Virus record (IMG/VR): IMGVR_UViG_3300007177_000042 | DNA from: a virus | Taxonomy: Duplodnaviria; Caudoviricetes | Reading direction: 5' to 3' (one strand) | DNA: 64,000 nucleotides | Shown here: in pieces, positions 17,048 to 35,498 of the stretch | Numbering within the stretch: position 1 is the first letter of the stretch | How the letters are laid out: each line of letters begins with the position of its first letter | Translations under genes and position numbers: made by a program | The notes under the pieces: model-generated | Database searches by the model: none | Told to the model about the DNA's origin: nothing | Seen by the model: the letters and a program-made list of their open reading frames with translations, nothing else

Positions 17048-17137
17048 GCCAACATGACCCGAATGGCTAAGGGCCCTGTTTTGTAAACAGGTATGAGGTA
17101 AAACTCTTTGTCGGTTCAAGTCCGACTGTTGGCTCCA
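17048..17137 (+). tRNA. tRNA-Thr(UGU) with long variable arm
   Basis: GCCAACA/TGTTGGC-T-CCA; loop TTTGTAA; V arm GAGGTAAAACTC. Confidence 0.85.
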
Positions 17138-25628: not shown

Positions 25629-25703
25629 GTCTCGTTGGTCGAGTAGTTAGGCGACTGTCTGCAAAACAGTATTAGATTGGTGCAAATCCAATACGGGACT
25701 CCA
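25629..25703 (+). tRNA. tRNA-Cys(GCA)
   Basis: Loop CTGCAAA, U73. Confidence 0.9.
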
Positions 25704-26189: not shown

Positions 26190-26417
26190 GTGGTGTTTCA
26201 CTTCAACAAGGCACATCTGAATGATAATAATATTCCGATGTGGGTTTTAAAAACAAAAGGCGAGACACATTATGTCAATCATGTGATTGCTAATGTTGGG
26301 TGGTCTACAAAAGAAACACCTGATAATAATCATACCAAAGGCAGTCTTAAGTTTAAGAATGTCGATGTGATTATTGATGAACAGAACGAGGCAACAATTT
26401 CTGCGGCTGTAGCTTAA
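26190..26417 (+). CDS. Conserved phage hypothetical protein
   Basis: FHFNK...PMWVLKTKGETHYVNHV...TKETPDN.HTKGS; 3' end overlaps the suppressor tRNA. Confidence 0.7.
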   Translation: MVFHFNKAHLNDNNIPMWVLKTKGETHYVNHVIANVGWSTKETPDNNHTKGSLKFKNVDVIIDEQNEATISAAVA

Positions 26418-26478
26418 CGGTATAAAGCAGTCGTCTCTAAAACGACCAATATGGGTTCGAATCCCATCAGGCGCACCA
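26403..26478 (+). tRNA. Amber suppressor tRNA (anticodon CUA)
   Basis: GTCGT-CTCTAAA-ACGAC; canonical D and T arms; A73-CCA; one G:G mismatch in the acceptor stem. Confidence 0.85.
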
Positions 26479-26634
26479 ATTTTACGATATCAGAAACTAG
26501 TTGACAAGATCGAGTTTTTGATGTAGAGTAGTAAGACAATAAAGTTCGTATATTTCGATAACGGCTTGAAACCGAGAAGAAGAAAGTTTCAAAAAGTTGT
26601 TGACGAAACCGGAAAACGGTGGTAAGATATACGA

Positions 26635-27565
26635 ACAATAAGAATTCGATGGAGTTGAGACTGTAGCTCAACTTAAAAGAGTGACTAGGAACCGAATCCA
26701 TCAAATCGTTCTTTGTAAGAAACAAGATTTGGGGTGCTTGAACTCCATATAAGATAGTGAGTAGTAATACTCATGAAAGAGGTAATCCCCTAACGGATCC
26801 TCGCCTTCGCAAGAAGGACAGTCAAGCAACTGGCAATGTCTGTGACTTTCATCCAAAAGGTGGAAGTATATCCGACGCTGGATCGACAAATGATAACTGA
26901 GGGTAACACTGTAAGTTGTCTACTAACGGTACCGCCGAGCACTGTTGATTCCTTAAGTGGAACAGCCACGAATAAGACACAAGCCAAAGATACGGGTGTG
27001 AGACCGCAATCAAATGCTCGTATGTAGATTGATAGAAAGTGGGCAGGGTAACCAGAACACAATCTTGAAAATCGGTGAAGTATCCGCAAGAGAAACACAT
27101 GTGGTGTGTCGCATATTGTATCCCAAAAGGGTATGAAACGACAAACAACGCACATCACGGTTAGGTGCATAATTAGCTCAATGGTAGAGCAATTCCTTTG
27201 TACGGAATATGTTATTGGTTCAAATCCAGTATTATATTAAAAACGCAAAGTCGTTGTTTGTCTAAGATGAAAGTGACTTAACTCTGTGACCGAAAGGTAA
27301 CACAGACAACGAAACATCCGCAAGATGCTAGTTGTTAATTGGAGTCTGAACGGAGTCCGCAAGACTTAACTGCTCGCAAGGCAGACGGTTGGATGAAGGT
27401 TGAATAGTCTTAGGTTAAGGTTGAAAAGCCACAACCCTAAAAAGGCAGTCATGTTGAATACAGTTATAGACGCAAGTCGTAACCGTGGATATGTTGGGAA
27501 GCCGATCCGCAAGATTGGTATAATCTAACTAAAGGTCAACAGATAAAGCGGTAATCTCACGCCAA
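26635..27565 (+). ncRNA. GOLLD-like giant ornate RNA (about 930 nt)
   Basis: ORF-poor; many GCAA/GAAA tetraloop hairpins; terminal GCG-GTAATCTCA-CGC hairpin recalled as a GOLLD 3' signature; promoter TTGACG...TAAGAT upstream; tRNA-array context. Confidence 0.7.
27167..27238 (+). tRNA. Degenerate tRNA-Thr(UGU) embedded in the GOLLD-like RNA
   Basis: D arm GCTC/GAGC; ATTCC-TTTGTAC-GGAAT; T arm; weak acceptor stem, no CCA. Confidence 0.6.
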
Positions 27566-27679: not shown

Positions 27680-28375
27680 ATGGCCATAATAACAAATCGA
27701 TATCAACAATTTTATACACACGACGGAAAAATTTTCGATCTAAATACTGTAGATTGGAACAATAATTTGTTGGATATTGAACAGAAATATGGGTGGGAAG
27801 CCGCAATGGCTTTTACCAACCTTGTTCATGATGATATCAACATGATTGGTCGAGGTGTAAGAGAAGGAGATGTAGTAATAGATTTGGGAGCTAATATAGG
27901 AATGTCGGCGTTAAATATGGAACGAAAGAAAGCAGACAAAATCTATTGCGTCGAACCTGATCGTAGAAGTTACGAAACTTTGTTGTTGAATAAAAACAAA
28001 AATTGGATCGTAGATAATTTCGCCATAAGTTCTTCAAGTGGAACAGTTAAGGTTGGTGAGTGGCCATATCAAACAACCGTCGATGTACGTGCAATAACAT
28101 TGGATCAGTATTTTGCACAACACAATCTTTCGTATGTTAATTTCATGAAAGTTGATATTGAGGGTAATGAAAATCATGTGTTTGATACTGTAAGTCAATC
28201 CACTATGGATAAGATCGAATCGATGGCAATAGAATATCACGAAGACGAGTCACAATCATTTGAACAAAAAAATTTCAATAGATCGAAGTTTGTTGACAAG
28301 TTTGTATCAAAGGGATTTACAAATTACGCTGTATTAATTCGAATGTATCAGTCAATGATCTATTTCTGGAAGTAG
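27680..28375 (+). CDS. FkbM-family methyltransferase
   Basis: DVVIDLGANIG...VEPD...TLDQYF...MKVDIEGNE. Confidence 0.88.
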   Translation: MAIITNRYQQFYTHDGKIFDLNTVDWNNNLLDIEQKYGWEAAMAFTNLVHDDINMIGRGVREGDVVIDLGANIGMSALNMERKKADKIYCVEPDRRSYETLLLNKNKNWIVDNFAISSSSGTVKVGEWPYQTTVDVRAITLDQYFAQHNLSYVNFMKVDIEGNENHVFDTVSQSTMDKIESMAIEYHEDESQSFEQKNFNRSKFVDKFVSKGFTNYAVLIRMYQSMIYFWK

Positions 28376-33722: not shown

Positions 33723-34655
33723 ATGAAATCTAACTCAAAAATTTACGTTGCTGGACATAATGGTATGGTAGGCTCTGCCATCTGGAGATCATTATTATCG
33801 AAAGGATATGACAATTTGATGGGAGCATCCAGTAGGGATTTGGATTTGAAAGATCAGCAAAAGGTCAACAATTTTTTTGAAATCACAAATCCGGAGTATG
33901 TTGTGGTTGCTGCTGCAAAAGTTGGTGGTATTGTTGCCAACAGTACATATCCAGCGGAATTTATTTACAACAACCTTCAGATTCAAAACAACTTAATTGA
34001 ATCATCTCGACGATATGGTGTAAAAAAATTGTTGTTTTTGGGAAGCAGTTGTATCTATCCTAAGTATGCTCCACAGCCGATTCGTGAAGAACATTTGTTG
34101 ACAGGCACTCTTGAACCTACAAATGAATGGTATGCTCTGGCAAAAATTGCAGGAATCAAGATGTGTCAGGCATATCGCAAACAATACGGGTGTAACTTCA
34201 TAAGTGCTATGCCGTGTAACTTGTATGGAGAACGTGATAATTTCGATTTGAATACTTCACATGTTTTGCCAGCGTTGATTCGAAAGTTTCACGAAGCCAA
34301 AGTCTACAACAAGCCACAAGTCGTTTGCTGGGGAACGGGTACGCCTATGAGAGAGTTCCTTTACGTAGATGATTTGGCGGACGCCTGTGTATTTTTGTTA
34401 GAGAGTTACGATGAAGATCAACACATCAATGTTGGATTCGGTGAAGACATTACAATCAAACAAGCAGTTGAAACCGTCCGTGATGTTGTTGGTTATGAAG
34501 GAGAAATTGTATGGGACACTACAAAGCCAGATGGAACGCCACGAAAGATAATGGATAGCACAAGAATTCAAAACATGGGGTGGAAACCAAAAGTTCAGTT
34601 ACGAGAGGGATTGGAAAAAACTTACTATTGGTTCAAAAATTCTGTACGTTTTTGA
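33723..34655 (+). CDS. fcl: GDP-L-fucose synthase
   Basis: AGHNGMVGSA, AAAKVGGI, GSSCIYPK, YALAK, WGTGTPMREF, KPDGTPRK. Confidence 0.95.
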   Translation: MKSNSKIYVAGHNGMVGSAIWRSLLSKGYDNLMGASSRDLDLKDQQKVNNFFEITNPEYVVVAAAKVGGIVANSTYPAEFIYNNLQIQNNLIESSRRYGVKKLLFLGSSCIYPKYAPQPIREEHLLTGTLEPTNEWYALAKIAGIKMCQAYRKQYGCNFISAMPCNLYGERDNFDLNTSHVLPALIRKFHEAKVYNKPQVVCWGTGTPMREFLYVDDLADACVFLLESYDEDQHINVGFGEDITIKQAVETVRDVVGYEGEIVWDTTKPDGTPRKIMDSTRIQNMGWKPKVQLREGLEKTYYWFKNSVRF

Positions 34656-35414: not shown

Positions 35415-35498
35415 CGGCATATGATGTAATAGAAGCCATGCGAGTCTTAGAAGCTCGTGGAGAAATCCGTGGGGGTGCAAGTCCCTCTATGCCGACCA
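35415..35498 (+). tRNA. tRNA-Leu(UAG)
   Basis: Loop CTTAGAA, V arm. Confidence 0.9.

Follow-up and report, generated by a model that had tools for sequence, protein, structure and literature searches.

Optional tRNA-derived domain in the linker of a jumbo-phage GOLLD RNA: covariation points to a retained core fold and a lost chargeable end

The DNA analyzed here, a window of 64,000 nucleotides, belongs to IMG/VR virus record IMGVR_UViG_3300007177_000042 (Duplodnaviria; Caudoviricetes), which is 107.7 kb long with an estimated completeness of 31%; the genome of the source phage probably measures about 350 kb. The window holds 35 tRNA calls and one tmRNA, and within this tRNA island lies a GOLLD RNA, identified by a match to Rfam family RF02032 at 27101-27563 (212.3 bits against a gathering score of 150, E 1.3e-58) that covers the whole model (positions 1-416). 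In an alignment with 12 relatives, the 5' domain was conserved from about position 26726 in 13 homologues, giving a GOLLD body of about 840 nt or slightly more (26726-27563). The 5' end may lie up to approximately 90 nt further upstream, near 26635. Further traits of the family are present: a size of about 800 nt or more with a conserved 3' domain and a clade-variable 5' domain, an origin from a phage or prophage near tRNA islands, and a variable linker between the two domains, which spans approximately 93 nt in this case. The features of the locus are as follows.

17048..17137, + strand: separate tRNA-Thr(UGU) gene of the same phage, outside the GOLLD (G1-C72, C2-G71, CCA)
26600..26628, + strand: candidate sigma-70 promoter with an extended -10 (consensus 9/12 with TG)
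26726..27563, + strand: GOLLD RNA (Rfam match plus conserved 5' domain)
26789..26794, + strand: 5'-domain hairpin loop (stem 26785-88 : 26795-98), pairing with the linker 5' flank
27101..27158, + strand: GOLLD stem with A-rich hairpin loop (Rfam structure; homologue pairing)
27143..27150, + strand: 5' strand of the linker-spanning pseudoknot, in the bulge of the 27101..27158 stem (covariation)
27160..27165, + strand: 5' flank of the linker, pairing with loop 26789-94; it takes up positions -2 to -7 of what would be the RNase P leader
27167..27238, + strand: tRNA-like domain (ARAGORN, Rfam, covariation), with frayed acceptor 27167-73 : 27231-37, D arm 27176-90, anticodon arm 27192-208 with UGU at 27199-201, variable loop 27209-13 and T arm 27214-30; CCA absent
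27239..27251, + strand: A-rich spacer with the conserved pre-pseudoknot motif at its end (alignments)
27252..27259, + strand: 3' strand of the linker pseudoknot (covariation)
27259..27563, + strand: conserved GOLLD 3' domain (Rfam alignment)

Four promoter-like sites were found where 2.9 are expected by chance, so that the candidate promoter is weak evidence by itself; its -35 region is kept in three homologous loci (L205, L026 and L030; L numbers denote related loci throughout). Between this site and the conserved GOLLD 5' end lies a long hairpin (26651-26703), which is also found in L205 and L030 and is cleanly missing from L026. Just upstream of the GOLLD, a tRNA with a CUA (amber) anticodon is located at 26403-26478, with counterparts in L205 and L042; under the standard code, 10 of the 92 long open reading frames end in TAG, a count made without a null model as a check for amber recoding. 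Positions 26190-26417 encode a 75-aa protein that has no Pfam match and counts about 200 homologues. This protein lies within approximately 1.6 kb of the GOLLD in the window, L205, L028, L042 and L182, and a GOLLD was present in 9 of the 19 searchable records encoding it. The tRNA island is also dotted with genes for sugar epimerases, a GT2 glycosyltransferase and an FkbM methyltransferase (20749-21651, 24489-25076, 27680-28375 and 33723-34655), and three more tRNA-like genes (22504-22581, 23655-23725 and 25549-25619) were called by Rfam and missed by ARAGORN.

For orientation, the env-38 GOLLD solved by cryo-EM (PDB 9MEE, Kretsch et al. 2025, PMC12286853) offers the closest known counterpart, with the same model match, tRNA-island setting, 3' domain and linker place. 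GOLLDs assemble into cages of 10 to 14 copies with the linker facing the interior; env-38 forms a 14-mer, its unresolved linker lies inside, and phage tRNAs sometimes occur in GOLLD linkers and are drawn within the cage (PMC12286853). The conserved motif at the linker end lies approximately 316 nt from the 3' end in the window GOLLD and 285-291 nt from the end in the env-38-like loci listed, while the env-38 linker ends 295 nt from its 3' end (PMC12286853). The position of the window linker matches that of the env-38 linker. The two differ in content, since env-38 has a 42-nt linker without a tRNA and the window has a longer one with a tRNA-like domain. A literature search found no structure of a tRNA-bearing member.

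Twelve distinct GOLLDs with the domain form the sample (window, L205, L025, L030, L034, L028, L042, L184, L185, L189, L206 and L207). They were found by pattern scans, through the neighboring 75-aa protein and by Rfam searches of the resulting records, and about 10 of the 12 are independent: the window and L205 are near-identical, and L030 and L034 share arms. The earlier note had described a tRNA-Thr(UGU)-like cloverleaf enclosed in the RNA, and both ARAGORN and Rfam (RF00005, 61 bits) indeed call one at 27167-27238. Its description as a built-in tRNA domain also agrees with the homologues: GOLLDs that have diverged keep the domain, with compensatory changes. Across the 12 homologues, pairing in the D, anticodon and T stems reaches 97.6%, with double changes at 11 of 14 pairs; controls slid along the alignment were 32-47% paired, and none of 500 shuffles reached the observed covariation, a count that ignores relatedness and is not to be read as a probability. 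Even near-identical phages (core 99%) are separated by a double compensatory change in the T stem.

The tertiary contacts of a tRNA are likewise kept. U8.A14 and G19-C56 were found in 12 of 12 domains and U54.A58 in 11; the 13-22.46 triple is either C-G.G or U-A.A, with all its members switching together; the 15.48 contact occurs as A.U, G.C or U.A; and the 18.55 contact is G18.U55 or, after a switch, A18.G55. These switches amount to few events (one for 18.55, one for the triple and two for 15.48). According to this audit, the D and T loops are able to form the elbow. Departures from the pattern are L028, with G54 and a 6-nt T loop, and L042, with an acceptor out of register, and the isolated window domain did not yield a full cloverleaf in a ViennaRNA fold. 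As far as sequence comparison reaches, the optional tRNA-derived domain of this clade keeps its core fold (D, anticodon and T arms with the elbow) and has lost its chargeability.

The A18/G55 combination also occurs in CCA-bearing tRNAs: 12 of the 14 G55 tRNAs of these phages have an AG D loop (p 3e-12, uncorrected for relatedness). In the window these are the CCA-bearing tRNAs for Tyr, Cys and Leu (20474-20560, 25629-25703 and 35415-35498), and further cases were seen in L030 and L032. No published work on A18/G55 was found in the literature search.

At the acceptor end the picture is different. A weakened stem without CCA had been reported from the window, and this was confirmed: G1.U72 and C2xA71 are followed by five A-U pairs. 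Contiguous acceptor pairs number 4-6 in 11 of the 12 domains, whereas 200 of 213 canonical tRNAs have the full 7/7. None of the 12 domains encodes CCA, versus 35 of the 36 other tRNA calls of the phage, enzymatic addition still being possible; a CCA-adding/poly(A) polymerase domain was found in a single relative, itself without the tRNA-like domain, in records that are mostly fragments. The anticodon loop reads UGU in four domains, carries other triplets in four and is 8 nt long in four, and the loops other than the 8-nt ones show UGU, AUU, UAU or GUU. A canonical 7-nt UGU loop is confined to the window, L205, L030 and L034, and the other 8 of 12 lack a 7-nt loop with G35 and U36. All four acceptor determinants of bacterial tRNA-Thr (G1-C72, C2-G71, G4-C69 and G5-C68; PMC9976931) are missing from the window domain, which likewise has no 7-bp acceptor with G1-C72 and C2-G71.

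Because the acceptor is short in 11 of 12 domains, CCA is never encoded and the anticodon varies among homologues, the threonine identity given earlier to the domain is, judged from the sequences, incidental; a tRNA-Thr with CCA is encoded elsewhere in the phage. That gene (17048-17137) is 90 nt long with a long variable arm, which is unusual for Thr. A recent duplication of it as the source of the domain was ruled out, as it is not among the closest tRNAs. Storage in print for linker tRNAs (PMC12990946) would make the domain a precursor of a working tRNA-Thr(UGU) in "inhibited storage", and the canonical UGU loop in four members would suit such a role. However, with all four Thr determinants missing, no CCA in contrast to the phage's other tRNAs, a proper tRNA-Thr(UGU) at 17048 and an anticodon that is not conserved, we regard a stored tRNA-Thr as highly improbable.

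The domain had further been proposed to be displayed on an 11-bp helix between 27140-27150 and 27252-27262. The two strands are exact complements, and a perfect 11-bp helix within 150 nt appeared in only 1 of 300 dinucleotide shuffles of the 840-nt region, but only the inner 8 bp co-vary. On an unguided MAFFT alignment, 27143-50 : 27252-59 is 96.9% paired in the 12 homologues, with double changes at 7 of 8 pairs. The outermost pair is kept in just 5 of 12; G27140 pairs instead with C27110 in 12 of 12, with six double changes. This belongs to the preceding GOLLD stem, whose outer (27101-07 : 27152-58) and inner (27108-11 : 27139-42) parts each show 100% pairing across 12 homologues. As A27141 and C27142 do not vary, they are not assignable by covariation, and some of the homologues listed are able to form 10-11 bp. 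On the other strand, the next Rfam stem, which is the first long helix of the 3' domain (27259-68 : 27407-16), competes for bases 27260-62. An alternative partner for 27252-59 at approximately 27304-11 was rejected, as it is broken in L034, whereas the bulge pairing co-varies.

Since this pairing joins the bulge of the preceding stem to the linker end, it is a pseudoknot, undrawn in the Rfam display and probably helix P15 in GOLLD numbering. The same pairing was found with 7-11 bp in tRNA-free GOLLDs among those listed, which makes it an element of the GOLLD family and not a pedestal for the tRNA; the idea of a display helix is thereby not supported. Nor is the domain stacked on the pseudoknot: on the 5' side, 16 nt that mostly belong to other helices lie between the two, and on the 3' side an A-rich spacer of 13 nt. 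At its other end the linker is held as well. Loop 26789-94 is complementary to 27160-65 over 5-7 bp in all 13 homologues examined, supported by a double change in L028 and by a matched 1-base deletion on both sides in L184, L185, L189, L206 and L207, and the flank 27160-65 is retained in L182 and L213, both of which have lost the tRNA-like domain. By covariation, this is a second pseudoknot that anchors the other linker end, and the linker is clamped by two long-range pairings, both present also without the tRNA.

This architecture bears on the proposal that the domain is an RNase P site. A cut by host RNase P or RNase Z would leave a two-piece GOLLD whose halves would be kept together by the pseudoknots, and cleavage could open or time the cage. 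[quoted passage not shown] RNase P measures a fixed distance along the stack of T arm and acceptor (PMC4919913), however, and this stack varies, with 5+5 bp and a frayed end in the window, 4-6 acceptor pairs in homologues and 5-8 nt between the flank and U8. The bases at -1 and +1 also vary, U-1/G+1 not being conserved among homologues. Bacterial RNase P binds a single-stranded leader, whereas leader positions -2 to -7 are predicted to be paired in the second pseudoknot; short substrates can still be cut. For an embedded pseudo-tRNA in M. aubagnense, no separate product was detected (PMC6582537). A phage RNase P RNA was not found in the 5 records searched, which are mostly fragments. As the length of the T-plus-acceptor ruler varies and the leader is paired, processing was ranked lower and appears quite unlikely, the RNase P proposal being weakly opposed.

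The earlier note had alternatively considered a bait. In one such reading, many copies per cage would act as sacrificial decoys for host nucleases that cleave tRNAs in defense. Between close relatives, the anticodon and T loops diverge fast, and T-loop nucleases that need U54/U55 exist (Cash, PMC13462974). We consider this improbable, as the linker points inward in the cage (PMC12286853), an anticodon loop of 8 nt is a poor imitation of what anticodon nucleases cut, and L030 and L034 have replaced U55, a base required by the Cash nuclease, in one event, like a tRNA that escapes and unlike a bait. A binding decoy is a possible variant.

With regard to its history, the domain is absent from L182 (remnant), L213 (clean deletion), XacN1, CM1, BUDD, X1 and the env-38-like GOLLDs. 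On a tree of the GOLLD core, carriers form two branches with cores 50-55% identical to each other, and 12 of the 14 sampled members of these branches keep the domain; L182 and L213 nest among the carriers, which reads as losses. A recent unselected insertion is refuted by this distribution over 12 GOLLDs with cores down to 50% identity; a single origin is possible. Domain identity tracks core identity (rho 0.69, non-independent pairs), and turnover is fast among close relatives, L185 and L189 sharing 98% of the core and 64% of the domain. Because the domain changes faster than the core among such relatives, occasional replacement is suggested; no donor tRNA above approximately 80% identity was found. 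Searches by blastn against cultured phages returned generic tRNA matches plus XacN1 and nothing else, and pattern scans of GTDB genomes gave 0 hits and then chance hits with no GOLLD. At 2277-2690 and 884-1303, the Xanthomonas phage XacN1 (L046, AP018399.1) carries an unannotated GOLLD (Rfam 227 bits) and an adjoining permuted tmRNA, and a profile search revealed unannotated homologues in phages CM1, BUDD and X1 (L055, L056 and L057); all four phages are cultured and amenable to genetics.

Such losses and replacements could also mean that a captured tRNA is merely structural filler, kept as a compact, self-folding insert that spares GOLLD folding and has no outside reader. The domain is optional and was repeatedly lost, its acceptor end and anticodon drift freely with fast turnover, and the linker is disordered in the solved cage (PMC12286853). 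On the other hand, loop bases and tertiary pairs specific to tRNAs have survived long divergence, to a degree that a generic stable hairpin would not call for, and the domain persists in 12 of the 14 sampled members of the two branches even though a clean deletion is evidently viable (L213). We therefore hold filler to be unlikely, though less so than the other rivals.

The explanation we favor, and consider somewhat probable, is an optional tethered mimic of tRNA shape that acts as a handle and not as a threonine tRNA awaiting excision; the domain is probably not a tRNA-Thr in storage, and serving as a cleavage signal is probably not its main role. It would stay covalently attached and offer one tRNA elbow per subunit, a handle that works regardless of identity for a factor recognizing the shape of a tRNA. 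The elbow is read regardless of identity by the ribosome, RNase P, RNase Z and many enzymes (PMC4810234), and it is from this identity-blind surface that we infer a shape mimic. Host translation or tRNA-handling machinery would be the leading candidate for the reader, because a ribosome pull-down by GOLLD is cited in PMC12286853. Against the mimic, the domain is dispensable, being lost in L182 and L213 and absent from the cultured-phage and env-38-like GOLLDs; some of the covariation could have been imported by replacement from real tRNA genes; and the partner, the expression and the cage of the window RNA are predictions. More tentatively, and unlikely in this specific form, the cage would show about 12 uncleaved, unchargeable elbows in its interior and thereby capture a specific host tRNA-reading factor, which may be a ribosomal subunit, a tRNA-processing enzyme or a defense nuclease.

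GOLLDs with a tRNA or pseudo-tRNA in the linker have already been published (PMC12990946, PMC6582537, PMC12286853), so the architecture itself is known, and the added value here is the covariation evidence. The mycobacterial GOLLD, compared by description and belonging to another lineage with another sequence, has a tRNA-Phe or pseudo-tRNA in the matching linker, named J13/15 in the review (PMC12990946, citing Morgado 2020; PMC6582537), and the M. aubagnense element was called a pseudo-tRNA, with no separate transcript detected (PMC6582537). In contrast to that case, covariation in the window clade indicates selection on the core fold and not on identity. The TYMV tRNA-like structure, MALAT1-type RNase P substrates and tmRNA also keep an elbow inside a larger RNA (PMC4810234, PMC4919913), but these are terminal and chargeable, or cut at a full acceptor, whereas the window domain is internal, tethered at both ends and short in its acceptor. 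A partial literature search found neither evidence for a selected fold without selected identity nor a series of relatives with and without the domain.

In print, tRNAs in the linker have been speculated to be cargo in storage; the evidence from this clade points the other way, selection having kept the elbow and dropped the chargeable end. Natural controls come from close relatives, among them carriers of the domain, L030 (rewired elbow), L182 (remnant) and L213 (clean deletion), and from the cultured domain-free phages XacN1, CM1, BUDD and X1, and the cargo, mimic and processing ideas are therefore directly testable in vitro. If capture by the elbows were true, the linker domain would be the cargo-binding arm of the cage and a first handle on GOLLD function.
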